Assembly (NCBI GenBank): GCA_020137815.1
Contig: CM035355.1
Location: 1,798,001 to 1,862,000 of the forward strand
DNA length: 64,000 nt
Reading direction: 5' to 3'
From: Hormiphora californensis
Taxonomy: Eukaryota; Animalia; Ctenophora
Under the pieces are notes generated by a model. That model had not been told where the DNA came from. It saw only the letters and a list, made by a program, of their open reading frames with translations, and ran no database searches. Positions within the stretch are counted from its first letter, which is position 1. Each line of letters starts with the position of its first letter. A program made the position numbers and the translations under genes. Below, in pieces: positions 15,854 to 54,559 of the stretch.

Positions 15854-15898
<45 letters not shown>

Positions 15899-29345: not shown

Positions 29346-32300
29346 CTAACCAGATTTAACTTTGGTGATGCCATGTGAAACTGGCACGGCCTGTCCTTCC
29401 GCGTGGATTGCTGAGAAAACAAGTAGTGTGTGTTAGACATGGAGTCAGGGCGTAGGACGAATGTAGTGAAATGTAAGAGAGCAGTTGAATATTGAACAAT
29501 ATTTAGAAAAAGAGAGAAAAAGTGAGAAAAAGAGGGAGAAAAAGAGAGAGTTGAACTTACTCTCGTAGACAATGGTCATTGAACTTCCACTAGAACTTCC
29601 ACTGGTTCGGCTCATACCACCAGAGGTTTGCCTGCAACAGGGATTTACAGTTAGGTAAGCAATACAAGCTGACAGCAGTGAGATACTGCTTCAATAAAGT
29701 CTACTTTCATGATCAAAAGTGATCCTGAGAATCGAAATAAACGGGCATAATGAGTAGTAGGGGGTGAAGAATAAAAAGTTATTATGTTACCTTGGAGTTC
29801 CGCTGGGGTAGACCTTCTGTACAGTTTTGGATGTGTACCCGGTGTACCCTCCACCGTACATGGCGGGGTGTCGGAGTCCGGGGGCACCATCAGGTGGCAG
29901 GGGACCTGGGGAGAAAGGGTGGTGAGGAATTGGGGAAAAATAGGGACAGCTAAAATGGAATAATCATGTTTTGTAAACATGAACTTGTTCAATGATTCAC
30001 TGGTTTAACTTTTGATGCTCCTTTGTGGAAAGTGAAACGATTGTTCAATGTTCATGCAACTCACCCATATTCTCAAAGTGAACATTATCAATGGCAAGAT
30101 CAGTGAATGACCTCTCCTCTCCATGGGGGTTCTTGCACTGGTGACCCCTCACAGCCGATATCTTCAGAGTTAGCTTGGAGGAGGTGGCGATATAGTATCC
30201 CACCCTAACTGTATACCAAGGAGACATACTGGGATACTTGGATGGCAGGGGTATCATGGGAGAGAAGTGGACCTGAGATCCAAGTTGGACTCTGAATTGT
30301 CCACTGCAGTGTCCCCATTTGTAGAGTAGAGCCTGCTCGAATATAGCCACATACATGTAACCCTTTTGGAGGCCGGTGATTGGTGTAGATATCATCTTGA
30401 TGATGATGTTGTTACTGTTTAACCTCACAAAGGTTCCTCCACTCTTACTGTTCTTCAGGATGCTTGCTCCTTGGAGCGTTGTATCAGAGCTGAGAGTATC
30501 CGACCCTGGTCTTTACCAACGTTAGTCCATCCCTTTGGCACCTTGCCATTGTGATCATTGCTTGGTGCACCCGCTGTGAAACCACCGTTGGAAATCTTAG
30601 GAGCATCGTATGTCTCCTTGAGACGCGTCACAAATGTGAAACAGTCTGCCTTGACATTAGTTCCCTTGGTAATCCTCCTGCACTTCTTGGTCTTTTTAAC
30701 CTTGAGACACAGGTTGAAGAGTTTCTTGCCCCACTTGGTCTGGTAGCACTTCTTCCCAACTTCCACCTTCTTGGTCTTCCATTCACCGTACACTGTTTTA
30801 TCAGCTGCCTTGGGCATGGCAACTATCTTGAACTTTCAGGTTCTCTATTAGCAGTAGCGAGACACCTTGTGCTTGCAGTAGGTGTCAGTGGTACCCAGTC
30901 CACTCTCTGAAAGTAGGATGGAGGTAGGGAGGGGTTAGGAAGTGGTAAACACTTATAAAACGAATTGGATATTAGCATTGTATTGTAAAGTGGTAGCATC
31001 TAAATTTGGTGTATAATTGGAGTATGTAGTAAGAACTAAAACTCACTGAATTTGCGACAGAGCTGGAACTCAAATACAGTAATAGTTTCATCACTATCAC
31101 TGGCAGTGTAGAATGTGTTGATGTCCTTGCGGTGCTGGTGGTATGCAAAGTCATCCTTCCACGACTTGATCCACGCGTTATCTGATAGGAGGGGTGTGAA
31201 TTAATGCTGTAGTAGGAGTTTTAGTGGGATGTCAGGTAGATATCAGCCAATAAAACAGTTAGAATAATAACAACTGCTTGAGAAGTGAGAAACAAAAATT
31301 GAAGACAACTTACATTCATTGATGTCAATGTTAGTTTTAGTGATCGTTCCATAGATAAACCAGACAGAGGGATCGTATCTGAAGAGTCCGATCTGGTAGA
31401 AGTACCAACTGTGGGCAATGCTAACATCCATGTACTTGTTGTGCTCGAAACCTGACAGGAGAGGGTGTCAGATATCAGCTGAGGCGAGGAAGGAAATGGA
31501 TCTGGTAGTTTCGGAGAGGGGGGGGGGTTAAGTTCACCCGGTGAACTATCAAAGGGAAGATTATGACGCTCTGTCAGGCCAATGCTCTGACCGCTGTTGA
31601 CGCTGAATGATGGTACTAAATTACCTGATGGGTAGTCCCAGGATTTCCAATCCTTTGATTCCAGAACGTACTTAGTCTCAGATTTCTTGACGAACCGACG
31701 GATTTTGTAGGAGTAAAGTGATTGACAGTACTTCTTCTTTCCTCCATCTACAGGAATGACATGAGTAGAATTAGGGCTGAGTTAAAAATTGAAATTAAAT
31801 TACGCTCTCGAGGTGTTACTTTGTGTAAAAACTAAAGTAAAGACTTAAGACAGCTGGTTGTTAGTTAAAACTAACCGTAAGTCTTTTCCCAACACTTTTG
31901 TAGTCTTGACACATCCTTGTCGACAAACCAGCCCTCTGTCCTATCGGGCAGGGGGTACTCTGCCTCCTTTGTGGAGATGTAGTGGGCAAAGTCCTCTTTT
32001 TGGTAGAACTTCTTATCCAGAATGTAGAAACCTGGTAGATATATGGGTTAACACGCTGTAACCATGGTAACAGGAACTATCAGAAATACATGGTAACCAT
32101 GGTAACACTCACACTGTGGGCTGGTGTAGGCGGTGATCTTGGCACAGTTGAACCCTCCACTAACGATCTGTTTGCAGATCTTGTAGGAGTGAATGGTATG
32201 ACAGTATTTCTTACTCTTCTTCTTGTAGGTTACCTTCTTACACTCCTTCTTCGTGGTTATCTCTGTGGAGAGAGAGAGTTGGGGTTAACGGTGGTTAACG

Positions 32301-35300
32301 ATCGCAAGACTTGTCAAGGTTGCTCTTTAGATTGAACTTCTCGAAACGACAACGTTGTGATGCCAGACATGTGGTTGTGTTGTTCTTTGAAACGTTCATT
32401 GTTATGTTCTAACCCTCGGAGCTCGCGAAAAGGAGGTCGAGCTAGGCTTTCTATGATGTGACAAATAATGTCCCTATAAAACTGATAGTACGTACTATTG
32501 CCGATGAGAGAGAATCCGTAGTACTCATCCAGATCACATGCATCAGGGTATTTCTTACGGAAGTGGGCCACACCCGTCTCCTTGATTCCTGCTTCCCATT
32601 CCTTGTTCACTGGCTTGTGGTCCTAAGAGGGGGAGGTAGGAATGGTTAATGGGGGTGGGGGAGTGGTTAAGGGGGGGGGGGGGTGGTTAATGGGGGGGGG
32701 GGGTTTGAAAGTTGCTGATATTAAAATTGGGATGTTGTAGGTAGGATTTGAGAGGTGGAAAACTACTACGACTTGACCAAGATTATCCAAACTTCATCTC
32801 GACTTACCTTGAAGCAGGTGGGTCGTTTGAGTGTCTCAATTTCCTCACAACTCTTTAGATCAGTGGCCTTGCAAATCTTGGTCTTGTAGGTATCAGTACA
32901 GTAACTAAATTCATAACCTCCCTTGTTGCTGTTGTAGCACTTGGTAGACTTGACACTCATAACTCGTTGCTTGGAAAAGAGAGCGAGTTTTTAATAAACA
33001 AAGTTTCAACCCCGTCTCGACGTATTGCTCTGACCGTGGTTGAGAATAGGGTCAGATCAATGCTCTGACAGATTAAGGCGTTATGGTTACGGTAGTTATT
33101 GGTAACCATGGCAACTTCAGGTACCTGGTCATTGTAGGTGGAGCAACACTTGCTGCAGCAGTGGGTGAGGTTATCATACCCGAATCTGACATAACCCTTC
33201 TTCTTCTTACACGGAACCTGGTTGGGGGGGGGGTAGTTAATTGGGCAATTAATTGGACAATCAATTGAACAATTAAGAAATGTTGGACATGTCTGAGTAG
33301 TGCAAATATTTAGAATACCATGCATATCTTGATCTACCGAACCCTCACAGCAATAAAATGCGGTGTGAGCCAAACCATGCATACCTTGAGTTTTGGTAGT
33401 TCGGTATTCTTGATATCATATGCGAACACTTTGGTGTAGTAATCTTCCTCACTCATGTGTTTCAACTTGGTAGGCTGGTCCCAGGTGGTCAGAGTCTTAC
33501 ACTTGTTCTTTTTAGGCTGCGGAGGGGGGACGGTGTTACCATGGAGGAGGGTGGAGACAATGTGTGTTATCATCGACGAGTTTAGAGAAGATTAAAAACA
33601 ATGTGTTACCATGGAAACACGACTACTCACGTTGTCAAGGTGGAGTTTCTTGCACACTTTGTACACGTTCATGGCGTGACATCGCTTAGCAACCACATTT
33701 CCATATTTCTTGGTGAAACACTTCTCCTTTGTGGTGACGTCACCCAACACAGTCCAGCCTGGAGGGAACATTGCAGGTTAGAACTAATCCAGCAGCTGGA
33801 GGATTATTGTTTGAAAAAGGATAATTGTAGGCAGTAAAGTCGAATTTTTTAATCAAGGGACAGGGGGCTGCACATTCAGAGAGGTCGCACGTGACAATCG
33901 AGATCAAGTTCCTGACAATCTTAAAACTTGAACCTGGAACCGTTTGAAAGATAATTTTAAGACCTTTTCAACGCAACCAAAATCAAGTCTTTATCTTATC
34001 AGGAACAGGAGATATGAGCGAAAACGTTTAGCACACGCAAATCGACTTTTGTAAATGCGCGGCCCCCTGTCCCTTGATTAAAAAATTCGACTTTAGGATG
34101 GGGAGTATATATTCAGAGTATTTTAATCAGCAACAAATGAAAAATAGAAGAATTACCCGGAATAACTTTCCCTCGCTTACCATCGTATTTGTTCTTGTCC
34201 AGGGAGTTAACAGGGATAATCTTGGTCTTGATGAACGCCTCCCACTTGCTCTTCCAGAAAGTTAACTTGATCCTGACCCGTTTGAAACAGGTGGGGTAAC
34301 TCCAACTGGTGACATCCTTACATTTGAGGGCCTTGACCCCGTTATCCTTGGTGATGATCTTGCACACACTGTACTTGTAGAGATTGTGACACTTTTGTAG
34401 GGTAGCTGTACCCACCTGAGTAGAGAGAGAGGGGGAGATAAGGAGGGGTAGACCAGGGGTTTAGACGAGGGAATAGGGAGAAAGGTAGAGTAGTGGGGGG
34501 TTAGTGATGTGAGTTGGAATGATAAAGTAGGGGAGGTAGGTCGTAGGATATAGTAGGTCGTGGGATAGTTGTCGTGGGATAGTTGTCAGTGAAAATACTG
34601 TGCAGCCCAACTCTTTACCTTTTTCTGCCAGCACTTTTTCTCCTTCTTGATATCTCCGTAGACAAACCACTTCTTGTACTGTACACAGGGTGTTTTGTAC
34701 TTGGGTACTACCTTCTTCTGTAGGTACTTGGTGAATATCATCTTCCAGTGGTCTTCCAACTTGAACTGGGGGAACACTGGGAACAAGGGGGAGGGGGTTG
34801 GAGAGGGGGAGGGGAGTAGTGGGGGAACACTGGGAACAAGGGGGATGGGGTTAGAGAGGGGGAACTTGAAAAAAGAGGGATTACTGTCATGTCTTCCCCG
34901 CGAAGAGGGGGTAAACTAAAGTAAGGGACAGTAATGGTTCGCACGTAGAGAATTTAAATATTTTACTGCATCATAATTATGAATTGCAAACTGATTTAAT
35001 TACCCTTTGGCTCGTCCCAGGTGACCCTCTTTGCACAATCACTAGGCATCTCTTCAGCCAAGGTGGGCTTCACGCAGAGATCATACTTGTAGAGCTTGTG
35101 ACAGAGTTTAGCTTCCTTTTTACCGTACTTCTTAGAGAAACACTTCTCAACACGCTGAATTGCTGTGGGAGAGAGACATGTGTAAAACAAGGCTGGATTC
35201 GGTGGAAGAGAAATAAAAAGTCAATAATGGAGAGACATATCATTGGATTTCTTGACTTTCAGAGAGAATTAGAAACTTACATTCGACAATGACAACCCGT

Positions 35301-38300
35301 CCCTTATATTTCTTGGCGTCCATGCTGTACTGTGGTTTGATCTTCTTATCAATATACACAGCAAACTTCTCCTTCCAGAAACTGAGGGCCTTCTTCTGGT
35401 GTTTGCACCCCTTGGGGGCAGTCCAGGTTGTATACTCCTTACACACGATCTTGGGCACCTTGGTCTCTGCGATATGAGTGGGATATTAATGGTACATATC
35501 TCTTAAAAATATAACCTTTTTCTCGATAATAATGAGTCAAATAAACTGTTAAATATACAGATAAACTGTTAAAATGATGAGTAGGGCGTAGGCCAAGAGG
35601 TGATATACTTACTTTTGCTAGTTTTGCAAATCTTGTAGACATAGAGATTCTGACAGTGCTCGAAGGTGTACGTTCCATCCTTCTTGGCAACTGAAAAAAG
35701 GGGGTATTAGGGAACTGGAACATTGATTTGATTCGATAAGAGCGGTTGCCATGGGGACCCTACGCACGAGGGCCAATCACTGAAACATGACAGGGATATT
35801 AGCGAACTAAAACATGACAGGGAAACTAAAACTAACCGTATTCCTTCTTCCAGCACTTCTTCTTCCTGGTAATGGCCTGGTACACATAGTGATCTTTCGT
35901 ACAACTTCCCTTGCTATACGCATACTTTGGTGCCACACCACTCTTGACGTAGTGATCGAAGATCTTCTTCCACAGCGCCTTGGTATTGATTTGGGAGAAT
36001 GCTGGGAGGGAGAGAGAGGGTGTTAGCTAGCGAACCTTGGGTGCACCGGGGAAGAGAAGGTGTTAGTATAACGAACTGGGGGCGCTGTGAGGACTGGAGA
36101 GAGGGCGAGGGATATTATGGTACTGACACTGGCGCACAAACAATACAGTTTACCATAAACTGGTAGATTTGAAACACACACTATGACTCACAAAGAGACA
36201 AACAATCAATGACTCACAAACAGACAAACACTCAATAACTTACTGGTAGGTTTGTTCCAACTGGTAATCTTGACACACTTGTAGGTGACCTTTGTATTGG
36301 TACCAGTAGCCTTACACACCGTGTACACACTCAACTCGTGACACTTCTTGAAGATGTACTTCTTTTCTGTAGGAGGGGGGAGGGGTGTTACTTTATTTCT
36401 GTAGAAGGGGGATCAGTGGGGGGAGGGGTGTTACTTCTTTTCTGTAGGAGGGGGAGGGGTGTTACTTTATTTCTGTAGAAGGGGGATCAGTGGGGGGAGG
36501 GGTGTTACTTTATTTCTGTAGGAGAGGGGAGTGGGGTGTTACTTTATTTCTGTAGAAGGGGGAGTGGGGAGTGTTACTTCTTTTCTGTCGGAGAGGGGAG
36601 TGGGGATTTAGTTCATTTCTGTAGGGGGGAGTGGGGTGTTACTTTATTTCTGTAGGAGAGGGGAGTGGGGTGTTACTTTATTTCTGTAGAAGGGGGAGTG
36701 GGGTGTGTTACTTCTTTTCTGTAGAAGGGGGTTGTTAGGGTTTTTTTCTTCTTTTCTGTAGGAGGGGGTTGTTAGTTCTTTTCTGAAAGGGGGGGGGGTA
36801 TTACTATAGAAGCAGTAGCAAGGAAACACTCTGTTGGGCTAGTAGCGATTGCATGGGAGAGAAAGGGGTTGCTACCAATTAAAATTGATAAGTATGGCCA
36901 CCTTAGTCTGGATACGAATAAGGGATTGGAATGCTCCTTTTCTTTTAGAGCATACATTCAAATGTTCATATAGTTTTGGTAACTTTTTTCCGCCGACTCA
37001 ATAGCCAATTTCTTTCCATTAACTTCCTGTTTCTCTTACTCTCTCTATCCCCTCTCTCTCTATCTAACCCCCACCTCTATCTAACCCCCACCTCTCTCTA
37101 ACCCCTCTCTCTCACTCTCTCGTTTTCTTTCCGTGGTAGGTATCAGGGCTACGAAGGGCAACATGTGTGATGAGTAGTGCTCACTCCTCCTCACCACCGC
37201 CCCACCAACCCTCCTCTGAGAGGAGGTGTGCCTCCTCACTTATTTTGGGTAAAATCATGTTCGTCTTGTATCTCGTCCTTGTCCTGACCGGCGCCTTGGT
37301 TTCTGCCGGAGATACCGAATGTCATTGTCCAAGGGTAAGTTATTAATGTGGCTCCGCTTTGCCCTCAAGAAGAATATTAATTTGATACTGGGCTCCGCTT
37401 TATTTAGATCACTGGGCCGGATCATAGTGTGGTGTTTAACTCCCCTACTAATCTTTCAGGTGAATTCTGACTCGTGTGATATAAACACCGGTAGATTCAC
37501 ACTGCAGTGTCCGACTGGAAAACCGTTCATCAAGAAGGCATACTTCAAGGATTGTAATGATGAGATTCCGAGGATCTATGGTGTTGACTGCGTAGCAAGC
37601 AAGGCCGAGTGGGACAGTACTGCTGAATGCACTGCAACAACTGGACCGTGTAGGAAGGAAAAAGAAGTTCTTACCCACAAAGTACTTTAGAATGCGTGGG
37701 ACTGATATATTGTTGGTTATTTAACTATTAACTATTAAGTTATACAATCTTTTGTTGGACTTTAAATATATACGTGATATTGTGTGAGAATCTGTATTTT
37801 TGTAAAAAACGTGTTACATGATTTATTTCCCCCTAAAGGAAAAACAGTAAAATTGCTCTCCGTTTTTTGTGTACTATTTAGACCCTTCCTCTGTTATCCA
37901 AAAAGCTGCTGCTGTCCAGAAAGCTGCAGCTAGCAGGATTTGGACAAAAATGCTTGGACAGGCATGAAAATTGAAAGGTGACGTGAGAAGTGAGATTGAG
38001 ACTAACCGTAAGTTCTAGTCCAACACTTCTTCTCCTTCTTGATACCATCAGTGGTGAGGCCGTATCCGGCATACTTCTTGGCTGGGACAGGATACTTCGT
38101 GGAAATCTGTTTAATGACCATGTTGAACTTCTTTTGGTAATAAGCCTTTAGGTTGACCTTAGAGTAACCTGATGGAAAAGAAAGGGGTGTTAGGTTTGCG
38201 GGGGGGGGGGGGGGGGGTACCAACCTATTTTTTTGTATTTTTTTGTATTTTTTTGTACGGTCCGTACAAAAAATAACCAAAATTCCCTGCTTTTTCCGTA

Positions 38301-41300
38301 CAAAAAATACAAAAAAATACAAAAAATACAAAAAAATATACTGCTGAAGGGAACTTCTTTAGGGCCCCCTATAAGTCTCTAGAGGTTTGCGGGGTCCTTA
38401 TACTGGCCTGTATAGCCCTCTAGTTTCGTAGTACTCATAATCCCATGCTTTTTCCATGCGAACATTACCATGATTAAGTTATTCTAGACCTGAACTTGCT
38501 CCAAATCCTAGTTGGGTAACAGCAAAATATGTCGGGATAGTGCCCAAGCTTTATTTTCTGATGAAATTTCATTTTTCGGCCGAATATGCCTACTTATTCC
38601 CCCTCATGCCTGGAAAAAGGAGGCATAAGCAGGCCGAAAAACTGAAAAAGCCGAATCGGCCTCTCTCCCCCGGCCAGTTGTGCGCGCGCTACATTATATA
38701 CTCTCAAATCGCAGTCTATTCAGTTCCCCCATGGTGTAGTGGTTATCGCATATACTTGACACGCAGAAGGTCCCGGGTTCGAAACTCGCCTGGATCATTT
38801 TTTTCAAAACTTTTTAAATACTAACACTTGGTATAGCACTAAGTGTAAATCAATTAATTTCAAAAACTCGACCGTTTTTTAGACTATTAAATTAAAGTTC
38901 CACTATCTTGAACTATTATCAAACTAACTTAGACCACTGGAAAAAATCGGCCAAAATGGGGATAAATTTTGGCCATTCTCGGCCAAAAAATATGCTGGGA
39001 CACCGGGTTAGTAAGACTTGTTCTAGTTAGGAGTCGTGGGGACGGGGAATGGTAAAATAAACTAAATAAACACTCTAGAGGCCTTTAAAGGCCAATAGAA
39101 GGACCTCGAGCGCCTCTAGAGACCTGTAGAAGGCACCAAAGAAGTTCCCGACAGCAGTAAACTTTTTTGTATTTTTTTGTATTTTTTTGTATTTTTTGTA
39201 CGGACCGTACAAAAAAATATTGCCTGCTTTTTCCGTACATCCGTACACAAAAATGGTTGATACCCCCCCGGTTTGCGCTGTCTCCTGCACACCTCGAAAG
39301 TCGAAACTTATTTCAGAATGTATAGCGTGAGAACGAGTCTGGTGCACGCAGGGTTTGAGTAACTTTGGGAGGGTTACTCAAGTAAAGTTAGTTACTTCTT
39401 TAAGGTAAACTTACACTTAGGTTTGGTGTAGGAACTGAGTGTTGTGCACTTCATGGTAATCTCAGTTTTACCAGTCGACACCTTACACACAGTGAACTTG
39501 TACATCTTACCACAGAAATTAACAGTATGACCTGAAGTAGAAATATATATATACATGTATATGGTAATATATGGTAAAATCCTGTAAATTTGTAGAGGGG
39601 ACAGGGAAAAGTGGTTAAATCATGTTGTTGAGTAATCAGGAGAAAAAATGTTTTTGAGGGGAGTGTTTAAGTGGTTATATTGGACACGTGGGAAATGATC
39701 AAGAGAGGTGTGGTTAAGAGTGAAATAGTGGGAGGGATGGTAAAGAGGTAATATTGCCTCTTTACTATCCAGTATCCCTCCCACTCATATGAGTTATTGA
39801 GTTACACGGTTGAAGACATGGGAAATCTTTTGGGCTCCCTGGGATTAATGAGAGGAAATAGACACGCTATATTTTATGAAAACATAACCTATCCATTGGG
39901 AGCGCCCCCATAAAAAAGTCGCTTGGCAAATTCCCTCGTCGCTCGGCAATTGGTTCGGCAACAACAGGTGGTTTGCCGAGCCAGTCGCTCGGCTAATCAA
40001 GGAAGTCTCCGTGATTTCACCGCGTTCTTACAGAAAAAGCACATTTTTTTAGCACTTTGTATTTTTCAGCAGGAGATTTTGAAAAAAAGTGCTGAAAAAA
40101 TGTACTTTTTCTGTAAGAACGCGGTGAAAACACGGCGACTTCCTTGATTAGCCGAGCGACTGGCTCGGCAAACCACCTGTTGTTGCCGAACCAATTGCCG
40201 AGCGACGAGGGAATTTGCCAAGCGACTTTTTTATGGGGGCGCCCACATGTGGACAATTGGGACATTCTAAACCCAGATCCCACCTTTACTATAACAGTTT
40301 ACGACTGGTTTGGTAAATCAACTATTGCTATTGATCATAACATAAAACGTACCCATTGGATCCTTCTTCCAACACTTTTTAACAGTTGAAATATCTCCCT
40401 TTAGCTTATATCCCTTGTACTTCTTGCACTGAAATGAAAGGTTAAAGTAGGTCTCATATGGATTGAAGTATTACGCATTTTTGAACGCACGTGTAAACAT
40501 CTACGTACCTGGGGAGTGTACTTCTCGGTGAGATACTTCACAAAGTTCTTAGTATACATGGCCTTTAGGTTTGTCTTTCCGAGGCAGTTCAGCTTAGTAG
40601 AGGTGGTCAGCTTCTTGCACTTCATCACCTGCTTTCCTGTAATTAGGGGTTAGGATGGTATTGGGGGTTCATTAATACTGGGGATCGTTTTAGGATTCGG
40701 AGCAGGAGTGTGGACTGACGAAGCATTTGAAATGAATGCATTTTAGTAAGGGCCACTAAGTCAGTAAGCATGCAAGATATGAGCATGGTAAGATTCGTTA
40801 CTTTATCTAGGAGAGAGAGCAGGTTCACTAGGCCCTTGTTTACCGCAGACTGACTTAGTGGCCTCATTTAGTAGGAATTCTCAAAACATCATTCTGACCT
40901 ACTAAATTCCATATCATATGATTGCTTGCTAAACTAATTTAAAAAGGGCTCTGATTGAAATCACTTACCCTTGACGGTGCTGATAGTACACAGGTTGTAA
41001 GTGTACAAGGTTGACACATTTCTGGAACTTGACCTTGTTTCCATAACTCTTGGCATAGCACTTCTCTTTGGTTTTAACCGCTCCGTTGATCGTGTACTTC
41101 TTTTTCTTCCAGGTAGCACACTGGATGGAATAAATGTGTGTAAATAGGGAGGCAAGGGCTAAATGTGGAATTTCGCTAGCCCATAAAAGGGATGGGAGTA
41201 AAAGCTACGGAGCTAATGAGTACATGGCGATGGTACAGGTTATTGTGTTTGTTACCTTGGTAACAGTTCATGTGTTTGTTTGTTACCTTGGTGATGAACT

Positions 41301-44300
41301 TCTTGGTTGTCTTGGTGAACCAGATGTTAAACTTCTTCTTGAGCCCACTCTTCATATCCAGTTTCTTGAAGCAGCCGGGCTTGTCCCAAGTCGTGGCCTT
41401 GACGCACTTGGTCATCAGTGTATCACCTGTTATAATGGAAGTGGGATAAGTTAATCTACAGATTACAGAGTAAAGAATGCCCGAGCTGTTTGCCGCAGCT
41501 AACTCACACCACAAGGTGACATGATATTGTCTGTTGGTTACTATTGGTTAATGGTTACTTTTGATTACTACTGAACCATGTTCTACATCATGTACCTTTG
41601 TCGATGACCTTGCACACGGTGAAGTTGTGAAGAGCATGACACTTGCTGAAGGAGTACTGCTCACCATAAGCCTTCTTCCAGCACTTATCTTCCTTGGTGA
41701 TAGCCCCCTTACTAAAGGAGAGAGAAATAAGGTTAAGTATTATTAGTCGTTTCCATAGCCATTGGCCACAATGATTTCCATGGTAACAGCAGAAACGGTA
41801 ACCATAGCAATGTATGCACTTACAGCTTGTAGCCCTTGTACTTGGTGCAGACACTGGGATACTTTTTCTTGATGGACGCGTAGTATTTGTTCCAGGCCTT
41901 GGTAAACATGAGTTTCTCGTTGGGCTTGTGTAGACACTTGGGTGCGGTCCAAGAGAAACACTGCTGACACTTCAACTTGTATGCTGTTGAGGAATGAGGG
42001 GGTAGGGGGTGTCGTATTGTGGGGGGGGGGGCAATAGTGATGCTAGACTGTAACAAATTTTATGTAATATTTAGTTTGGAGTTACTAATAAGAAGTTACT
42101 ACTTACTCTTGTCAGGCATGATGTAGGAAATGGTTTTGGGTTTACACCGAACAACCTTCGTGTCCTTGGAATAGTCAGCCTTGTACGCCTTCCTCTTCTT
42201 CTTCTTCCTCCTACGCCTCTTCTTCCTCTTTCCCTTACCACGCCTCCTCCTACGTCGCCTCCTCCTTCGCCTTCTACGTCGCCTCCTTCGGCCCTTTCTC
42301 CGCCTTCTTCGGCCCTTTCTTCGCCTTCTTCGGCCCTTTCTTCCCCTCCTTCGGCCCTTTCTTCCCCTCCTTCGGCCCTTTCTCCGCCTTCTTCGGCCCT
42401 TTCTTCCCCTTCTTCGGCCCTTTCTTCGTCTCCTTCCCTTACCCTTCCTTCTCCTTCTTCCCTTACCCTTTCGTCGTCTTCTTCTTCCCTTACCCTTCCT
42501 TCGTCTCCTTCCCTTACCCTTTCTTCGTCTTCTTCTTCCCTTACCCTTCCTTCGCCTTCCTCGACCCCTCCTTCGCCTTCCTCGACCCCTCCTTCGCCTT
42601 CCTCGACCCCTTCTTCGTCGTCTCCGTCTCTCAACCTCGGCAAGGTCTGCCTCCAGTTCGGAGAGCATCTCAACCTCGCCAGGTGCATCCTCAACGGGAG
42701 AGAAGAGATCTCTCTTTGCCAAGTTAACCATCTGAGAAACTGCCGCTTGCTGCTGCTGCTGCTGCAGGTTACACTTAGTCCACGGGAGCACGGGGAAATA
42801 ACCCTCTGAAGAGAAATATATCGCTCTTAGATTCTTGGAATTTGGATATGAAATCAAGAATTCTATGAAATATTAAAATAATTCCGTTAAATTGAATTTC
42901 GATGATATTACTGTTAGGTATTAACGTACTTGGTCGAGGGCAGATATTATAGGTGTACATTTTGTGGCACACTTGAATTTGGGAGCCTCCGATTTTATTG
43001 GCACAAGTTTTTGTGTAGCACTTTTTCACCTGGGAAGCACCTGGAGCAGAAACAAGAATTAAACATGACTGTTGTAACCATGGTAACACAGGGGTAACAT
43101 AGCAACACACAACTCAACTTACATCCTTGGACAAAGTGAGTCTTGTCCTTCTTGCACAGAGGCTTCAGCTTGTTTTTCACAGATGCAGTACACTTAGCCT
43201 TCAGTTTCTTAGTGAGCTTGAACACAGGTTCCTTGACCACAACGAACTTCTTGTAGCCTGATAATAGAGAATGGATTTGAATCAGCAGAAGTATTCCGCC
43301 ATGGCAAATGTAGAATAAATGAATTTGTCGTCATGGTTACCTGTTGGCTTGTAAGTGGTGTAAACTTCACTACATTTCTCATCAAGATCGCACATAGTGA
43401 CCGTGTAGACGAGCTCAGCAGAACTAGCAATTCCGGAACATTTCTTCTTCTTTTTCCCCTTACTCACAGATTTCACCTAGTAAATAAAGGAATTGTTGGA
43501 AATTGTGTTCTGTACACTGGCCAAAACAAAATGTGATTGTCAAAGACGAATTCAAAACGATTTGGAGAACTTATTAACCTGATATTCATCAGCGGGGCGG
43601 TAGAGTTTCAAATACTTCTGGTCACGTTTCACCATCATAATGGAAATATGCTTGTTCCTTCCTTCAAATGCCAGGGCTGCAAAGAGAAGAAAATGTTTAT
43701 AAAGGAGCACATTTCATCACTTTGCGAAAATTACCTTTAGGGAAGGAAGATGATATGGTTTTGTAACAATCCTCGCTGATCTCCTTTCCCTTCAGTTTGC
43801 AGGTCTCATAACGATACCAACAAACACACTTCTTCTTGCCTCCACATTTCTCCTTGATGGTACTCACAACGACGTACTGTTTGGCATTCAAGTAGGCTGC
43901 AGAAAGAGGGAGGGTTTAGAAAATAAGGAATTTAGAAAACAGGAAATTTAGAAAATAGGGAATTTAGAAAACTGAATTTAGTCACAGTCGTTTTAAAGGA
44001 ATTAATCTACATATATCTCACCCAAATCAGTTCGTTTGCTGTAAACTATCTTAGTGTTTCCACTCTTCTTGTTCACAAAAGTGTGCTTTATGTAGTCTTT
44101 AGCGTTCTTGGCCTTGCAGTCAGCTTTTTCTGAAAAGATGTAACCATGGCCCCTCTTTTGAAGGAAGACTCAATAAATTTCGGCCAGTGAATAGATCGGG
44201 ATAATTGCAACGATAATTATCAGGAAACAAAGACATTCCGTCGTTCCATTGCATACAAACTTGGTCTAATCGATTATCGAGACCCTATAACCATTGCCTT

Positions 44301-47300
44301 AGTCCACAACATATGCAGAGTTTTTTCATAGTCCTTTCAACTTTATTTGAAAAGAATGTCTAGGACTAATAACCGTGACGCCGCCCCATGTGGCCCATGT
44401 TTGTGTACTTACTGGCAGTGGGTTTCTGGTGGCACAGCATGGCGTCCGTTTTGGCCTTTAACTTCCACGACTTGAGCGAGTACTTCTTCGCTAGGAGCTT
44501 CGGCTTCACAATGGTGACATATTTCCTGAAGTAGACAAATATTGGTGAATTCAGGAAGCGGCAAGCATCTCCGACTGAAGAGTCGAGTGGAAGAAAAGAA
44601 GCGTGCCTGCTATTTTACAAAGAAAGGTATCAGTAAGATTAACTTACGCGTAAGGAATCTCATCAGCAGTCATTAGGTTCATGTTGCTGGAGATTATCAT
44701 GGGTTTCTTGATTCCATAAAGACCGACGGGAGTGAATCCAGTCTTCACCTTTTTACATGGTTTCTTTCCTCCCTTGCACACCTTGAACGTGTAGATCTTG
44801 ATGGTTTTCCTGTTCTTGTATTCGCCCACGGCACTACAGTACTTTGTACGGCCCTTGCGAACCCCTGAAACAGAAAAGTGTGATTGTTGAATAGTACCGG
44901 AATGACCCGAGGAAAACTGAGAAGATTAGCAGAGGTTTTTTGGAAAAGGATAGTTAGTTTGATGAATCTCAATGAACTTACATCCGGTTGCTTTCCATTT
45001 TTTCTTGTTGTACTTGGTGGTGATGTAAGATTTCTTACTGTATATCATGATCTCGTTGATCTTTGCAGACTTGCCCTTGTACGCAAAAGCTGAATGGGGG
45101 GTAAATTAGTTTAATTGAAACTTACTATTAAATTGAAATCGTTATTTTAAATGTTGTTTGTATAGGTTTTTCCCATCCGTATCCGTGGAAATCTAACAAG
45201 AACATGTACCTTTAGGGAAAGTACTATCAATGGCCTTGACACAGTATTTTGCACTCTGGCAAGCCTTATATCGGTACCAGCAGACACATTTGTTTTTCTT
45301 GATCTTGCATTTCTTCACCACCTTTCCAGCGATGTACCACTTCTTCGTTGGAGTGAGGTGCGCTGGGAGAATACGAGGTTGTTAGGGAAATCCGTCAAAA
45401 TGGTGGAAATTTCAGCGGAATTACATGAGAGAAAAAGAGATGATATTCTAAAGAATTCAATTTAATGAGTGTGGGTGAGGAAGGGATAAAGTGACGGGGA
45501 AGTCAGGGTGGAGTTAAGTAGCATAATGGTTAGGTGGGGGTTATAATTCATATTATAATGCAACTGTCAACTTTAGAGAAGAGAGATAGATACTAGATAG
45601 TAGAAAGGAGAGTACTTTTAGATGAAGCTTCTTCTTAATTTAGCAATGTGTGTGTCAGCGAAGAACAAATTTTATGATTAGGTGGCAGAAGTAAGTGAAG
45701 CTCGAGAGATAGATGAAGCTTTTCTTCTTAAAAACTGTTAATCTGTCTTAATTTGCTTAATATATGATTGGATTGGATAGTTTTAATAAAATATGATAAT
45801 GTAAAATATGCTTATGTTAATGTACTCACATGATGGAACACGTTTCACGTAGACCGTCGAACATTTCTTGGTGTTTTTGTTGAGGCACATTTTCAGCGAA
45901 TAATAGTCCTGTCTATTTTTATCCTGACACTTTTTCTTCTCTGAAAAGAGGGATGGTTCAATGGTATACTTCTAATTTTAACTTAAACTATATATATTTC
46001 ATCAACTTATTTGGTAGCTTACTTTTTGGGAGCTTTTTGATCTTGCAAATCGTCGCGGGTGATATTTCTGAAACGGTATATTTTTAGAAGCTGCTACGTT
46101 CAACCAACGTAGGTGCTGCCACACCTTTTTGTAGATTATCTTTGTCTCAACCCTTTCAAAGATGTCCTTCCTTCCCTACCCCACCTCCATGTTATGATAC
46201 TTTTGCTAATTACTATTTATAAAGTCAAATTCAACCATTTTGAACTCACTTCCTTTGATAGTGTATTTTGAGAGGGGGTACTTGACAGCCATTTCCTTCG
46301 GAGAGTAGATGTAGTTCTTAACCGCGGGTCGGTAGGGGAATCCTTCCAAACTTGTCTTCATTAGAATCACCTTAACCTTCTTCACCTTGTACGCTAGATT
46401 TGTTCAGGTGTTAGTTTTTGCCTTAACACACTTACTTTTTTCGAAGGTATGATTATTGTTCGTTTTGAGCTCTGGTTTGAGTCGGTTTGCAGGGTTCAAC
46501 ACGGGGCCTGGCTCTGCCAAACAGTGTGTAACTGAGTATATTGCCTTACTTGGTGGTTTGTACTTGGTGACCCAAACTTTGCAGAATTTCCCATTGCTCT
46601 TGCAGATCTTGTATCTCCATTTTCCTTTCTTCGTCTTTCTCAACTCTGTAAATGAGGGCGGTCAAATTCAAAATCTCACCGTGATTCATCTTTTTTAATT
46701 CTCTCCTGCTCTCCTCTCCCTGAATCTCTAAATACAACTCGTAAACCGCACAACGTCACGACAATTTCTTTGTCTCCCTCTCTTTCTTTCACTCTCTCTC
46801 TTTCACTCTCTCTCTCGCCCTCTCGTTGTCTAGCATCTTTTCTCACACAGCCAAGATTGTAATAACCATCATTTGGAATGTAAAACGTCTATAATGATTG
46901 CTTTTTAGTTCCACTATGGTACCTGTCTTTCTGTACTTGACTCTCTCGTTTGGTTTGGATTGATCAAACCAGAGAGAGAGAGAGAGAGAGCAAGAGATAG
47001 AGATTTAAATCACTATACCTATGATATCTCTCATTACATTGTCTCTCTTTATCTCTCTTTATCTATACCTCTCTGTCTCCCTACCCTCCCATCTGTCTAT
47101 CTCCCTCTCATTTTCAGTATACGTACTTCCTTTGCGGACATAGACGTTCTTGTCGTATTTCAGGATCATATACCGAACATGATGACGCACCATTTGGTCC
47201 GTGATCTGCTTTGTAGTTCCCTTGTACTCCAGATCTGCAATCAAAGAAGTTGTTAGGTAGAGGAGTGTTTGAAATGTTGATATAAATTTAACAAAAGTAG

Positions 47301-50300
47301 TCGCGGTTATATTCCCTAAAATTAGGTATAAATTACCGTAGGGGAAAGCACGGGACTTTGTAGTAAAGCAGGAGGAGAGCTTCTTGGCATTGCAAGCGGT
47401 GAACTTCCAGAAGCATCGGCCTCCTCTTCCACCACGTCGTCTTTTACCACCCTTCCTTCGTCTTCCCTTTCTTCTCCTTCGTTTTCCCTTCCTGCGTCGT
47501 CCTTTGCCCCTTCGACGTCTTCCCTTCCTGCGACGTCCTTTGCCCCTTCGACGTCTCCTTCGACGTCCTTTCCTTCCACGTCTCCTTCGACGTCCTTTCC
47601 TTCCACGTCTCCTTCGACGTCGCCCTTTGCCCCTTCCACGTCTCCTTCGACGACCTTTCCTTCCGCGCCTCCTTCGTCGTCCTTTCCTTCCACGTCTCCT
47701 TCGACGACCTTTCCTTCCACGCCTCCTTCGACGTCCTTTCCTTCCACCCCTCCTTCGTCGTCCTTTCCTTCCACGCCTCCTTCGTCGCCCCTTCTTTCCA
47801 CGCCTGCCCTTACCTCTCCTTCCACGCCTACCCTTGCGACACTTCCGTACAATAGCTGAAAATTGGTTGAAACATCATCTCCTGGAAACTACAATTCGAC
47901 ATTAAACAGCAGCTAGATCTATTACCATTACTCGCCCCTTTTACCCCCTTCTACCCTACTCACTCGACTTGACGACATAGCTTTTCCTTGGTTTCATATG
48001 AGAGTAAGGGATAACTCGGGTGTAGACGACAGTGGTTTTCTTCCCCTTCACGAGGGTAACCTTGTAGAACTTCCGGACACGGGCCTTGGCACAATTCTTC
48101 TTTTTGGTGATAGGTTTACCAGCACAGACCTTGGAGTCTTCCATTTCTGGGGAAGGGGAGGGTTACATTAGTTGAAAATATATGGGCGTTGTAATTCTGA
48201 ATGTGTATAATCTAAAGTATCTTTGCTTATAAAGGGATTGCTGGTAAAGCGCTCGACAGGATCAAGATTCTGGAGCTGATTACAAAGTAATACAAGGTTT
48301 TTCAATCGATTGAAAAACCTTGTATTACTTTATAATCTAAAGTATGTAATTAAAAGAATAATATACTTTTGATTGTGTGTGTAGGATATTTCTTGAGGAA
48401 TCGCCTCCATCCAATAATCTTGATGGTAGACCTGTAAATATGAAGTAAAAATATCTAAAACATCTACGACCATCTCATAAATGAACTCGACCGTACTAAT
48501 TTGCCAATGAGATAATAACGCCGGGAATTGAAATCTAATAACCAGCAATGAACTTTCATATCTTCCTCTCAGATATATCCTATTGCTTGAAGTTCATTTG
48601 TCTCAATTACTATCTTTATTTATTGATCTCCCATCTTCTATTTACCGGTATGGAAGTCCATCCAGTGACTTCTTGTAGTAAACCGCCTTGAAGCCCTTGT
48701 AGCCAGTAGGCATGTAGTAAGTTCGGAATTTTCGACAAACCTGTAGGAGATGGGTTAAATTGTTATTATTAGATCTGGAAAAATAAGCGCATTCAAGTGC
48801 GTCATACTATATGTGTCGATGTGGTATTTTATATTGTTGTTACTAATTCCCGTCGCTGTTTCCAATTCCACTCTACTTAATTGATACAAGAAAGTTGGGA
48901 ACATCTAATTATTGGTAACTGTCGTATTATTGGCTGGTAGAACATGTGAACTTGCATTTCTATTGTCACTCAGTTCCACAACTACTACCGGCACTTGCAC
49001 ACAGACACAACTGTCTTACCTTCTTGTTTTTGGCACTGCACAACTTGAAAACCCAGAGCTTTTTGACACGTTTTGGTTTTCCGACCAGGCGCCATTTCAC
49101 AGGATCGTATTTTCTGTGCAGGTACTGGATGTCATATCGGATCATGCGCATTGTGATCGTTTTAGCACCTCCTGAGAATACAGTGATTTTAGAAAGAAAC
49201 ACCAATATTATTGTTAACCCATGAAGGCAAACTAATCCATTGTACAAAATGGCTAGTTATTGAAATTAGTTTTCTTACCAACGAATTTCATTCCCTTGGG
49301 GAACTTTCTGGAGCTAGACCGAGCGCAGTTGGTCCACTTTTTACCCTTCTTCTTGCAAACACGGTACTCGAATCTGATTGAAGGGTTAAAAAACGATTAA
49401 TCAATAAGCCCTTAATCTTTGCATAAAACATAATTTAAACACCATGTATTAATTAATTATTGTTAAAAATAGCTTTGTTACCTGCACTTCTTCTTGCCCC
49501 GCTTCTTTCTGCATCGTGTGCGAATCCTGCCACGGAGCCGGAAGTTCTTTCGAGGTCGGAAGTAACCGAAGGGAATGCCACGAAGGTAGATGGTGACCTT
49601 TTTCTTTGTCTTCGTGTTGAAGAGCACCACTCGGTAGAGCTTGACCACCTTTTTACATTTCGCCTTTTTGGTGCGAGCCTTACCCTTACAAGCCTTGATG
49701 AGTTTCCAGGTTTTGACCCTCCAGATTTTGACCTTGTAGGTACGTCTCGCCTTGGCTTGGGAGAAGATGCGAAGAGTACTTGTGTAGTACAGACCACCAG
49801 CACTCTTTTTGCGAAGCACCTTCTTCTGCCACCTCTTGAAGTCACTAGAGGGAGGGAAACCGATTGAAAATGATCACATTAGGGAGTTTAAAACATAATT
49901 TGCAAATGGCAGTTACACGTATATCAGGTAAGAAAAATACACAACCGCTGATTTACCGATAAAGGCTGAAGCTGTGCCACTTGGCAGCTCCACTAAAGTT
50001 GACATGAGTGATCTTCTTAAATCCAATTCTGTGTCTGTAGGCCGGTTTGGTGACGTGAATTCCGTTCACCACAACGTTAAATCCTCGCTTCAAGTTTCGA
50101 ACAGTGAATGAAAAGTAGGGTTTCTTGGTCTTGAAAGGCCACCTCTTGGGTCTGTACTCCCTTCCCCATCCTCCCTTCTTCGTATTCATCACGATTTGTC
50201 CCCTACCAGCAGGCCTAAAGTCCAGGTGGAACGCAATCTGGAAAATTGACGAACTGTTGGAACTAGCCGGATAACTTAAAAGTAGCATTTCAAAATGTAA

Positions 50301-53300
50301 AAGCACTGAAAGCAGTATGCCAAAGGAAGTTAAACTTACATGTTTTCCCGCCCAAAAGTTCATGGTCCACTTCTTCCTGTTACTGGTACTTTGACCAGTG
50401 ACGACCATGAAATCTTGTAGCCTGATCTTGCCCTTGAAGGCATACTTCTTCCCGATGGTCATGCTCCTCAGACTCATAACGGAGGATCTGAAGTGCCTGA
50501 ACCAGCGAGCACGAGCAGCCTTTCCAAGACCGTTGAACCGATACCCGGTCAACAGCTTGAGAGCGATCTTGTGTTTGAACACGGTATAACGGGCTCCGTT
50601 GATGGTTATGTAGTATCCGATCTTGGCAACTTCAATCAGAATGGCGTATCGGTTACCACGGCCAACAGGGGGATATGGTCCAGTTACCTTGGAAACCATT
50701 TTACCTCCCTTGTAGGCACTAAACAGGACTGTTCCTGACGCTCCCCTTCTGAAATATTAAAGTAAGTAAGTAGCTGCACATTTTCCAATTTCCACATGGA
50801 AATTTGAAGTATTAGGAATTTAAACAGTAAGGAACTCACGCCTTGATTGTGATGCGAAGTCCCTCAACTCCCTTTCCTCGGATGGAGAAGATGAAAGTTC
50901 CAACCATGAAGCGACCAAAGAAGAGGAAGGTATCTCCCTGCTTGATCCCTTCCGCAAACTTGTACACTTTTCCATCGACAGGCTTCTTGTTCACAGGGTC
51001 TATTGGGGTAATTTTAGTTAACGAATGAGTTGGATGCTGTTATACTAGTAGTACTACCTTGGCCTGGTAAGTTTGATAGTAGTGCGGGGTACAGAGCTAA
51101 TCAGTAAGTTTTACTTACACATTCGGTATTTGACGGTGTAAGTGAAGATGTTGGTCAACACCGCCCACTCTTTCTTGGAAATAACTCCATAGGAGACGGT
51201 TGCTTTGAGCCATGAAACTTCACCACTGGGACTCTTCTTGGCCTTCCTTCCCCTTCTAAGGGTGTACTTCCTCCTTCCCCTTCGTTTTGCTTCATATGTA
51301 ACTCCACCGCAATCTATTAAAGTGTTTGAACTGTCTAAATCTTGTCTAAAACCTCATCAAAAGACGAAATTTCGATCATAATAAATGTTGGTCTAATAAC
51401 AAATTTGTGTCTTAAACTTACTAGGTCGGCGATTACAGACTCGAATGGCCTTGTTGAGCCTAACGAAGCCCCGTCTTCCTCGTCTACCATTGTAGCCACC
51501 AAGATACATGCCCTTGTGTAGGGTGTACCCCTTGACGGCCTTGAAGGAAACCTTGGCTGCTGATCGCTTTCCCTTTCCTCCAGCAAGGGGTGACATCCAT
51601 ATAATGTGCTTGCTGTTTCGTCCGTATACCTTCATTCCATTCACATCGATCTGTGCCAAACGTCCAGGAACGTTAACCCACCGTTTACCGGTTGGGAACT
51701 TGCGGCTCACTTGGGTTCGGTAGTAGATCTTGTCAATCTTGTTGACACCAACCACAATACCCCATCCGGAGGCGATCCATTTGAGGGCACCGGGGATTCT
51801 CACCCACTGAAATCATCGGAAATATTTAGATACTGGTATAGCAAAATAATCTGCCTAGCTCTGAAGGGAGCGCTATCTCGTTTGACATGTTCCTTGTCTG
51901 TCAGCTTACGCGAGCCCGAACAGACAGACTGCGTAGCATGGCAACCTAGCGTGGGGCCGTTAAACCAGAAATTAGAAATGGTCGAGGCACACGCCAGACA
52001 GCTCAGAAATAACGGTAACTATTAGGCACTAAAAAGCCTACCTTCTTTCCGCGCCTGTTTTTGTCTCCGTAAGTTCCAACTCGGTAGTAAATGTGGTGAG
52101 CCTTGTTGACAACCCAAACACCAGCACCGCCCACAGAGATCTGAATGGCAGCTCCTCCTACCCTCATCCACTTTCTCTTTTTATGATGCCGTTTGTAAAT
52201 TGCCATACCTTTGTTCACTCCCCAAACTCGGTTAAACTCACTCACTTCAATCTAGGATTAGATCGGGTTCAGTATGTAGAGACTAAAGACCAACTGGACA
52301 CTAAATAATATCTCTTAGCTTTTTCGAAAATTAAAATCTCTCAAACTGTGATTCTTCACTCTACCTACAGGCTACATCACTGATTTACCTTGACGAGTTT
52401 TCCTGCAATCCGTTTCCACTTGTGACCACCTAGCCAGCGGTAAATGTTCATCTGTCGGTTACAACCCCAAACCATGCTACCACCGACAGCGACGTGGGTC
52501 AGCTTGCCCTTGATCCGTTGCCACTTCTTCTTTCCTCTCCAGCGGTAGATGTTGTCGCTCTTGTTGACACCCCATAGACCCATTCCACCGAAGGATACAA
52601 CAACAAGACGACCGGGAAGACGTCTCCATTTGGCGGTAATGCGAAGAGAACCTAGAATGTTGATAGCGATTTAATTAGCTTAGTCTTAGTTTCGGTAATG
52701 TTTTGAAAGTCTACTACTCTACCTCTCCAGTATCGAACTCTGAGCCATGAGTTTTCACCACTTGGACTCTTCTTGGGTTTACGTCCCTTTCGGAGTGTAA
52801 ACTTCCTCTTGCTCTTGCTCTTTCTCTCCCAGGTGATACCTCCACAGTCTGAAAGGCGTGGTAGTTGTGAAATAGTTGTTAAAAGTGTATGATATGTTTG
52901 CATAATGATTATGTTGCATAACATGCAATCAAGTATGCAGTTGTGGGGCGTCAGTTTCACTTCCTGGACCTCTTACCTTTCCTTTTCCGGCAAGCCCGGG
53001 CGGCAGGTCTGAGGCGACGGAAGGCGATTCTTCTCCCTCCGGCGTACCCTCCAAGATACTTTCCTTTGTAGAAGCGGTATCCCCTAACCCACCTCCTCCT
53101 CCTTCGCCTTCTCTTTCGCCTACCCTTCCTACGACGACCCCTCCTTCGCCTTCCTCGACCCCTCCTTCGCCTTCCTCGACCCCTCCTTCGCCTTCCTCGA
53201 CCCCTCCTTCGCCTACCACGACCTCTCCTTCGCCTACCACGACGGCCTCTGCCTCTGGGTGGGCCTGGAGGTCCAGGAGGTCCCGGGGGACCGGGTGGGC

Positions 53301-53931
53301 CAGGAGGTCCCGGTGGGCCTTCGGGTGGGCCTGGAGGTCCAGGAGGTCCTGGGGGACCGGGTGGGCCTTCGGGTGGGCCTGGAGGTCCAGGAGGTTCTGG
53401 GGGACCGGGTGGGCCTGGAGGTCCAGGGGGACCGGGAGGACCACCGGGACCATCATCAGGTGGACCGGGTGGGTGCTCTGATCGCTTAGCTAGCTCGACT
53501 AGCTCTGAAGGGAGCGCTATCTCATTTTCTTCAAATGTAGAATCTGGAGCTGGATTCAAATTGAGAACGTCGGCATCGAACACATCTGGGGAAATACAAG
53601 ACCCATTTGATACAATAAAAACGTTTGGATTTACAGCAATATTTATGAAGGAGCACAAGTTTGTTTATGAAGGAGCACAGTATCTAACTTTCGAACCTTT
53701 GTCAGTGATGGAAATAACTGAACTTTCCGCATAGCCACCGATAAAAAGGCACACGTATCTGGAAATAAATGCCGCAAAGGTTAACACAAATGAGAAAAAT
53801 CAAAATCAACAACCATGCCAGCTACTTCTTTTGTAAAGGAACCGTAGCTCCGACTGAAATCCAAGATTTGTAATCTAATGGTTATACCGCACTTACAATG
53901 TTAAAATAAAAAGTTTATTCCGTTGCCTCAT
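29346..53931 (-). CDS. Giant secreted cationic multidomain precursor (~3,500 aa, ~50 exons): collagen-like, protamine-like, tectonin, galectin, Lys/Cys repeats, CBM-like; carries three frame lesions in the 3' half
   Basis: Hand-spliced exons, in phase at the junctions checked. Exons 53931-53897, 53758-53697 and 53585-52977 give MRQRNKLFILTLYVCLFIGGYAESS...ELVELAKR-SEHPPGPP. The join across 42930/42806 is in phase. The last exon ends HGITKVKSG* at 29346. Confidence 0.75.
33835..34095. mobile_element. MITE with ~40-bp TIRs
   Basis: TAAAGTCGAATTTTTTAATCAAGGGACAGGGGGC ... GCCCCCTGTCCCTTGATTAAAAAATTCGACTTTA; internal segment resembles an element in an IQCK intron (~4285-4500). Confidence 0.8.
36345..36790. 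repeat. Intronic minisatellite (~35-40 bp) built from a duplicated splice acceptor
   Basis: Repeated TTCTGTAGAAGGGGGAGTGGGGTGTTACTTTAT; on the minus strand each unit contains C-rich tract-CTACAG|AAA, copying the true acceptor at ~36367. Confidence 0.8.
37257..37690 (+). CDS. Nested antisense gene: 102-aa secreted protein with 8 Cys (exons 37257-37334, 37460-37690)
   Basis: MFVLYLVLVLTGALVSA signal peptide; AGG|GTAAGT donor and TTTCAG|GTG acceptor in phase 0; lies in an intron of the giant minus-strand gene. Confidence 0.8.
38201..39269. mobile_element. Non-autonomous DNA transposon with G/C-tailed TIRs and 8-bp TSD (GGTTTGCG), carrying a tRNA-like sequence
   Basis: GGTTTGCG at 38193-38200 and 39270-39277; ends GGGGGGGTACCAACC / GGTTGATACCCCCCC; subterminal (TTTTTTGTA)n and GTACGG(T/A)CCGTAC palindromes. 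Confidence 0.8.
38723..38797 (+). pseudogene. Degenerate tRNA-Val(GAC)-like sequence
   Basis: A box TGGTGTAGTGG, B box GGTTCGAAAC, anticodon loop TTGACAC and downstream T7 terminator; anticodon and acceptor stems are mismatched. Confidence 0.65.
39902..40242. mobile_element. Foldback MITE, near-perfect palindrome with ~155-bp arms
   Basis: GCGCCCCCATAAAAAAGTCGCTTGGCAAATTCCCTCG... is mirrored by ...CGAGGGAATTTGCCAAGCGACTTTTTTATGGGGGCGC. Confidence 0.88.
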
Positions 53932-54559
53932 ATTAGTGGCCATGCATTGTTACACACAAAGGGGGGTGCTGGTGGCAAGACTTCTGCTGTATGAAGCTGC
54001 TTTTAGACGAACCCTATAACATGAGAAACAATGTAAGACACAATGTTAGATTAGCGGAAATGACGTCAAATATATCGTGTTCAACAAGACGAAAAGGCCA
54101 TGAAACTACAAAACGGCCAAAGACACACAAGTCCACAAACATATAAAAGATACCCCGCTGTAGCAGCTACAAGCAACAAAGCACACACAATACACGCATC
54201 TAACCTCTAAAGGTCTCCAGCAACCTGGGATTTGATTCACTTCCTTGACGCATAACCAGACACACCCACACAACCAAAACTTCGTGGAAGACATGCTCAC
54301 ATCAATGAACTGGACACCAACCCAAACTTCAAAGGATATGTGCCACCCGGAACTCTTTAGAATGATGGGTGAAGGACTCATTTCGAGCTTTCGGAGGAGC
54401 AGTAGTTATGCCACGCGGCTAAGTGAGAGATGTGTAACCCTCATACGTAAGACTGTCACACGCACAGCTCTCTCTCTCTGTCCACCACCGTACTCTGATA
54501 TATGCAGATACAACCTCAGATACAGCAGACATCATGAGATGTATATAGTTTTGAGAATG

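Follow-up and report, generated by a model that had tools for sequence, protein, structure and literature searches.

What kind of protein carries a repeated Lys-, Tyr- and Cys-rich module in the ctenophore Hormiphora californensis, and what might such a protein do? We addressed this question in a window of 64,000 nucleotides from contig CM035355.1 of GenBank assembly GCA_020137815.1 (positions 1,798,001 to 1,862,000 of the forward strand; positions below are counted from the first letter of the window). The modules are scattered over many exons of one spliced gene on the minus strand (29346..53943), for which we model ~63 exons and ~3,780 codons, the final two exons being the least certain. 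Judged from its whole architecture and its ctenophore origin, the product of ~3,780 amino acids (aa) is plausibly a secreted, positively charged, sugar-binding glue or cohesive scaffold that contains twelve copies of a Lys-rich module of ~95 aa, with colloblasts as its most likely source—a reading to which we assign a probability of roughly 0.48.

How well is the gene itself supported? The repeated motif was found by six-frame translation, in short open stretches of the minus strand bordered by splice signals, and the gene model was then built by a splice-and-codon search and corrected manually. Its introns have a median length of ~130 nt, and all 62 are GT-AG, having been chosen so by construction. 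Outside evidence comes from P0001, a 353-aa ENA sequence that runs through modules R6 to R9 (in the numbering used below) in a single open frame. Because it aligns to the spliced model without gaps over 323 aa (aa 2827–3149; 67% identity), it supports six of the modelled junctions. Contigs from RNA run X10, and from run X7, which we guess to be RNA, end at modelled exon borders, and one RNA contig joins 35281 to 35162, an exon–exon junction. The small word shares of runs X7 to X12 led us to draw no inference about habitat from them. As a separate observation, P0001 reads through six intron sites of the window (32808-35050), while another relative, P0037, starts and ends at window exon borders; read at the sequence level, the relatives have gained or lost introns here. 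The repeat copies, too, differ in where their introns lie.

How many modules are there, and how regular are they? A sequence-only reading of the window had placed 12–13 repeat cores, and all 13 lie where it put them: 12 copies and a truncated one at 43020. Its period of ~88 aa was too short, the measured median being 95 aa (89–115 aa for R1–R11), with 191 aa from R11 to R12. From the N-terminal side, and all on the minus strand, the copies are the truncated R0 (42768..43162; leave-one-out score 28.9 bits), R1 (41287..41855; 77.9 bits), R2 (40515..41120; 49.1 bits with an X at a frame break near 41008), R3 (38086..40514; 76.6 bits), R4 (35916..38085; 76.2 bits), R5 (35321..35915; 60.7 bits), R6 (34694..35320; 71.5 bits), R7 (34203..34693; 80.2 bits), R8 (33385..34202; 67.8 bits), R9 together with a Cys-rich insert that is also in P0001 (32536..33217; 23.8 bits), R10 (31955..32535; 43.5 bits), R11 (31314..31954; 47.7 bits) and the shortened R12 (30581..30808; 23.2 bits). 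A half module comprising the part from C5 through C6 to the helix precedes R1 (41856..41981; 9.9 bits, E 5e-5 against the module profile). The second conserved Cys of the successive copies lies at 43020, 41683, 41060, 40374, 38025, 35855, 35142, 34633, 33720, 32939, 32242, 31894 and 30748. R12 is preceded by a stretch of ~95 aa (30809-31313) that is module-length, less basic and without a profile match—possibly a decayed copy.

The copies are divergent, with a mean pairwise identity of 26%. Each of the 13 is nevertheless recognized at 23–80 bits by a hidden Markov model (HMM) built from the other twelve, and the 1,000 shuffles made of each copy all fell short of its real score (maximum 12.6 bits). 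The sequence-only reading had also described the copies as becoming less basic toward the C-terminus. This holds from R1 to R11 (Spearman −0.76, p=0.007), but R12 returns to a basic charge, and over all 12 copies the correlation is −0.60 (p=0.04).

What holds a module together? Each carries up to six conserved Cys, C1 to C6. C2 and C3 are present in 13/13 copies, and C4 and C5 in 12/13, being lost jointly in R11, where only C2 and C3 are kept. Across the 12 array copies, C1 and C6 are both present in seven and both absent in five (R4, R6 and R8 among them), with no mixed case in either direction (Fisher p=0.0013); when C6 is paired with C1 of the neighbouring copy, no pattern appears (p=0.55). 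Since Cys are kept or lost in pairs, the bonds probably run C1–C6, C2–C3 and C4–C5 within one unit. Conservation in P0001 extends to 21/21 Cys, 8/9 Trp, 16/20 Tyr and 50/65 Lys. An AlphaFold model of one unit, the P0001 homolog of R7, made from a 19-row alignment, reached a mean predicted local distance difference test score (pLDDT) of 72.8, with residues 11–70 at 82–93 and the helix at ~50. It places strands at 10–27, 30–48 and 54–63 and a helix at 78–91; judged from these strand ranges, Cys22/Cys35 and Cys44/Cys58 sit symmetrically about the two hairpin turns, as cross-strand disulfides would. The module is thus predicted to be a long three-stranded beta-meander, or ribbon, followed by a helix and stapled by C2–C3, C4–C5 and C1–C6. 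A single-sequence AlphaFold model of P0001 was set aside (pLDDT 40). The sequence-only reading had proposed a series of disulfide-stabilized domains, and the covariation of C1 and C6 in 12/12 copies, the joint C4/C5 loss, the unbroken Cys conservation and the predicted strand geometry all agree with it.

Is the module a known domain? We scanned Pfam with 43 exon pieces from ~42 of the 63 exons and with P0001, and NCBIfam with five pieces; neither gave a family above cut-off for the module. A PDB sequence search with the module alignment, and with the C-terminal domain of the protein, returned 0 matches at E<=1. In the ESM Atlas, one exon and P0001 found no usable feature match and structural neighbours of TM <=0.25 only, and the single-module model found nothing significant in Foldseek (best E 0.14 in pdb, 0.04 in viral) and a weak best match in VIA-align (pdb_via_wide; Z 3.1, root-mean-square deviation 2.4 over 47 aligned residues). 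A missing fold match does not prove a new fold. The true relatives found are four fragments with 67–93% identity (P0001, P0002, P0003 and P0037). A search of the module profile against 1.84 billion representatives gave 4,699 matches at E<=0.001, and among the 150 matches listed two were true relatives (P0002 and P0037), the other 148 scoring <=17 bits per domain. Six of these 148 were checked by Pfam, and all six were BspA leucine-rich repeat (LRR) proteins (PF13306). We rejected these matches as an artefact of summed weak hits, with a single-domain median of 6 and maximum of 17 bits vs 46–98 for true relatives; P0004 (E 0.0095) was likewise dismissed as an LRR false positive. BspA LRRs share with the module a similar Cys spacing of 22–23 residues, but they form a solenoid rather than the predicted long beta-meander, and Pfam finds none in P0001 (~3.5 modules) and none above cut-off in the module exons. 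The weak LRR matches may mask distant relatives, and P0001 itself is absent among the matches listed, so that little can be concluded when a sequence is missing from this search. A ceiling of 2,000 aa on the proteins covered by the word-indexed searches meant that a full-length ortholog could not appear in them, and two metagenome contig scans yielded zero relatives. These searches tied the module to no known domain and, beyond the fragments, to no true relative. No description of the protein or the module was found in the literature searched, most subscription papers lying outside that search. The 95-aa module has the look of a small, new domain of extracellular type whose disulfide pattern can be inferred.

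What else does the protein contain? Exons 1 and 2 (53730..53943) encode a predicted signal peptide, recognized by eye, and from the sequence we infer that the protein is secreted. Of all 19-aa windows along the protein, the one that begins at aa 13 is the most hydrophobic (mean 1.64), and because the top hydrophobic windows are all N-terminal, no membrane anchor is seen. An acidic propeptide follows (53484..53729; D+E 24%, net −8), ending in LAKR (aa 68–71), a dibasic site at which cleavage would occur. Downstream of this propeptide the protein is strongly cationic (K+R 28%, D+E 5%, net charge ~+830). The next segment (52977..53481) holds a Gly-Pro-Pro stretch (Pfam Collagen E 2.5e-4, below cut-off), a first Arg/Gly run and the start of a short Cys module. 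Two lectin-like regions then come in succession. A tectonin beta-propeller (51590..52651) is matched by PF19193 on three exons (E 3.5e-18, 1.5e-11 and 1.4e-12; 66.3, 44.6 and 48.0 bits; cut-off 30) and by PF06462 (E 3.5e-6), and two galectin domains (49957..51125) are matched by PF00337 (E 4.9e-5 and 5.8e-16; 23.2 and 58.6 bits; cut-off 22.1). Galectin domain 1 is degenerate and lacks the binding motif. Domain 2 matches galectin-8 (E 7.6e-13) and reads H-x-D-x-R..N..W-G-x-E; of the canonical sugar-site list, H-x-N-x-R..N..W-x-x-E-x-R, it retains H, R, N, W, E and R, with Asn changed to Asp. A Cys module of ~75 aa, which has what we take to be a PAN/apple-like look, occurs twice, flanking the propeller at 52750-53100 and 51200-51550 (alignment score 234).

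Between the galectin domains and the array lies a second Lys/Cys repeat family with units of ~220–230 aa. Its block 1 (47838..49956; local alignment 320 vs a shuffle maximum of 102) and block 2 (43170..47415; internal alignment 221 vs 89) are separated by Arg/Gly/Lys run 2 (47418..47835; 140 aa; R 59%, G 26%, K 14%; net +103). Block 2 gives weak matches to the C3–C5 part of the 95-aa module (E 0.008–0.012). With ~4–5 copies across 43170-49956, the family looks unrelated to the 95-aa module, has in common with it a hairpin-like motif, Tyr-x-x-Cys-Lys...Cys, and gave no Pfam match in the exons scanned. After R0 come a Gln run, a second LAKR (aa 2050–2053), likewise a putative cleavage site on account of its dibasic end, and an acidic spacer (42629..42767; D+E 33% after the site), and then Arg/Gly/Lys run 3 (42188..42626; 147 aa; R 63%; net +118). 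The protein ends, beyond R12, in a weakly basic C-terminal domain with a Gly/Ser/Tyr tail (29346..30580), without a sequence match in Pfam, NCBIfam or PDB.

How does this architecture compare with known systems? The closest likeness in design is to Mlig-ap1 of the flatworm Macrostomum lignano. According to its description (PMC6410801), very basic Lys/Arg regions surround a lectin-containing core, adhesion requires the protein (by RNA interference), negatively charged sugars block its function, and it combines a C-type lectin, vWD/C8/TIL domains and 17 EGF domains with KR regions at its two ends (>3,600 aa). Our protein is likewise very large, with long Lys/Arg-rich regions and lectin domains, and an electrostatic mode fits it; Mlig-ap1 is secreted, and our protein is predicted to be. 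It differs in that its lectins are galectin and tectonin, its runs 2 and 3 measure only ~140–150 aa, and most of its charge lies on folded Lys/Cys modules. Pfam found no C-type lectin, vWD/C8/TIL domain or EGF array above threshold in the 43 exon pieces, the nearest being one EGF_CA in R0 (E 0.11); exon-sized queries can lose split domains, yet not a 17-EGF array. Lacking the C-type lectin, vWD and EGF array, the protein falls outside the Mlig-ap1 family, and the likeness would be convergent, with no homology shown. Nearer in taxonomy is ML020113a of Mnemiopsis leidyi, a secreted colloblast candidate with a TECPR propeller and a galectin domain (PMC6278862). Compared by domain description, the two proteins share a signal peptide (predicted here) and a TECPR/tectonin propeller plus galectin in the N-terminal half; ML020113a is 2,242 aa long and has bulb-lectin, FTP, EGF and Ig domains, none of which were found here. 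Galectin-8 and -9 also have two tandem galectin domains, as here, where the second keeps most binding residues, and tectonin lectins share the Pfam tectonin repeats. In our case, unlike in these lectins, both lie inside a precursor of ~3,780 aa whose N-terminus is signal-like, and galectin domain 1 lacks the motif. The protein is best filed, as a candidate, with the polycationic, lectin-bearing secreted adhesives; neither its module nor its architecture turned up in the libraries and papers we searched.

If the protein is indeed a cationic, sugar-binding glue, how would it work? Cleavage at both LAKR sites would split the precursor into chains of ~1,980 and ~1,730 aa. It would be stored together with a polyanion, because its two acidic segments (~−8 each) cannot neutralize the charge. 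After release, the Arg runs and Lys-covered modules would bind anionic surfaces and the glycocalyx, helped by cation–pi contacts to Tyr and Trp. Glycans would be held by the propeller and the intact galectin site, and the tandem modules would supply length and cohesion. DOPA (3,4-dihydroxyphenylalanine) would not be needed in such a polycation model. Only tentatively do we take the further step of regarding the protein as a principal colloblast-adhesive component: a processed two-chain polycation that joins an undescribed disulfide beta-ribbon module to poly-Arg tracts and lectins, convergent with flatworm ap1. The colloblast link is circumstantial. One study calls the colloblast adhesive proteinaceous and of unknown identity, with bonding robust to pH (10.1101/2020.06.27.175059); ML020113a, a different protein that also has propeller and galectin domains, is a colloblast candidate, and tentacle candidates include sulfotransferases (PMC6278862). 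Colloblast candidate genes in the sense of Babonis et al. 2018 are those that occur in most ctenophores but not in Beroe or Haeckelia and are upregulated in the tentacle bulb. PMC4997693 and PMC11184263 offer nothing decisive.

Several points weigh against a colloblast glue. Low-complexity sequence is not enriched among colloblast candidates, according to PMC6278862. No named Mnemiopsis ortholog turned up in the protein searches (proteins of <=2,000 aa) or in the large profile search, and ML020113a, which domain positions had put forward as the ortholog, is ruled out by its bulb-lectin, FTP, EGF and Ig domains. The RNA contigs originate from seawater samples; the signal peptide and cleavage sites are predictions read from the sequence by eye; and the window copy has three frame breaks. 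Tectonin, galectin and polycationic tracts, finally, would fit innate defence as well.

What else might the protein be? It could be a secreted innate-defence or mucus protein whose lectins recognize microbes and whose Arg runs and cationic modules, whole or cleaved, agglutinate or damage them. Tectonin and galectin domains, both present here, serve other animals as pattern-recognition lectins; antimicrobials are commonly built as cationic disulfide beta-hairpins; and dibasic sites are abundant. The modules are contiguous, however, with neither spacers nor a repeated processing site between them, and the size and the Gly-Pro-Pro stretch would fit a material better than a peptide precursor. We consider defence unlikely. 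A little less probable still is a structural scaffold, held electrostatically to sulfated glycans, in another extracellular layer (mesoglea, egg coat, statolith or tentacle core). Tandem folded modules, a collagen-like Gly-Pro-Pro stretch and the lack of a membrane anchor would suit it, as would a propeptide that ends in KR, since KR-ended propeptides occur in secreted structural proteins; yet few bulk matrix proteins would be expected to carry so large a charge, and Pfam detected no matrix-type domain (vWF, laminin or an EGF array) in the 43 exon pieces.

A third candidate is the chemistry of the sequence-only reading, in which hydroxylation turns Tyr into DOPA and cross-links to Lys make a catechol glue. 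DOPA/Lys glues of this kind include the mussel foot proteins and sandcastle-worm cement proteins, short or simply repetitive and largely disordered, and the mussel DOPA proteins are far richer in Tyr. Our protein resembles them in being marine, cationic and supplied with both Lys and Tyr, the array having 83 Tyr amid 21% Lys, and the title alone of Townsend and Sweeney (2019) names catecholic compounds in ctenophore colloblast proteins. Tyr nonetheless makes up only 7.8% of the array and shows no excess next to Lys (35/83 vs 31 expected). The conserved Tyr occupy fixed columns of a Cys-stapled module that is predicted to fold, mostly inside predicted strands, whereas the three disordered Arg/Gly/Lys runs have none. 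DOPA cross-linking thus finds no support in the sequence, and we regard it as doubtful. Very improbable, to our minds, is a broken allele or pseudogene in which the repeat has no current function here. It would account for the three frame breaks in the window copy (near 41008, at 30865-30836 and at 30515/30501), and the many differences between DNA run X1 and the window show that this run does not represent the window haplotype. Errors of assembly most likely explain the frame breaks. DNA run X1 and RNA run X10 both lack the extra bases at 30515 and 30501, and without them the frame is open; two RNA contigs, with three gaps each, cross 30748-30906. The position near 41008 lies outside read coverage. 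The 3,738 modelled positions are free of stops except for in-frame ones inside the X-masked break at 30865-30836, and the strong conservation in P0001 also argues against decay.

The rest of the window holds other features. An intronless papain-family peptidase, or cathepsin (62826-63944, minus strand; PF00112), has a signal-like N-terminus and a short Cys-rich tail with what is presumably a ShK-like look; it has five relatives at 59–63% identity, the next being at 37–38%, and the only named cluster members are from Mnemiopsis leidyi, which by itself points to a ctenophore source, probably other than M. leidyi. Spliced housekeeping-like genes, recognized by eye, occupy 13056-28460 on the minus strand: a ubiquitin-specific protease (13056-18036), an enoyl-CoA reductase-like gene (20144-22970) and a PRP39-like gene (~24700-28460) with a weak HAT_PRP39_C match. 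On the plus strand, an intronless open reading frame of 275 aa (6367-7194) has several hydrophobic helices and looks by eye like a G protein-coupled receptor, with no Pfam match at E<=0.5. A 34-bp satellite fills 7628-12347 (~139 copies, 92% matches), and a different 34-bp tandem repeat stands at 57354-57623 and 58335-58651. Within an intron of the module gene, the element at 33840-34090 shows very high contig depth in DNA runs X1 and X8 and is likely a dispersed high-copy repeat.

What would the finding mean for ctenophores? The protein offers a concrete, testable candidate for a colloblast glue, which predicts expression in the tentacle bulb, loss in Beroe and Haeckelia, and adhesion that polyanions block. 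Whatever the tissue, the 95-aa module could be a folded polycationic building block for wet adhesives. If the glue reading is true, the charge-plus-lectin design would have arisen independently of flatworms, in an early-branching animal lineage.

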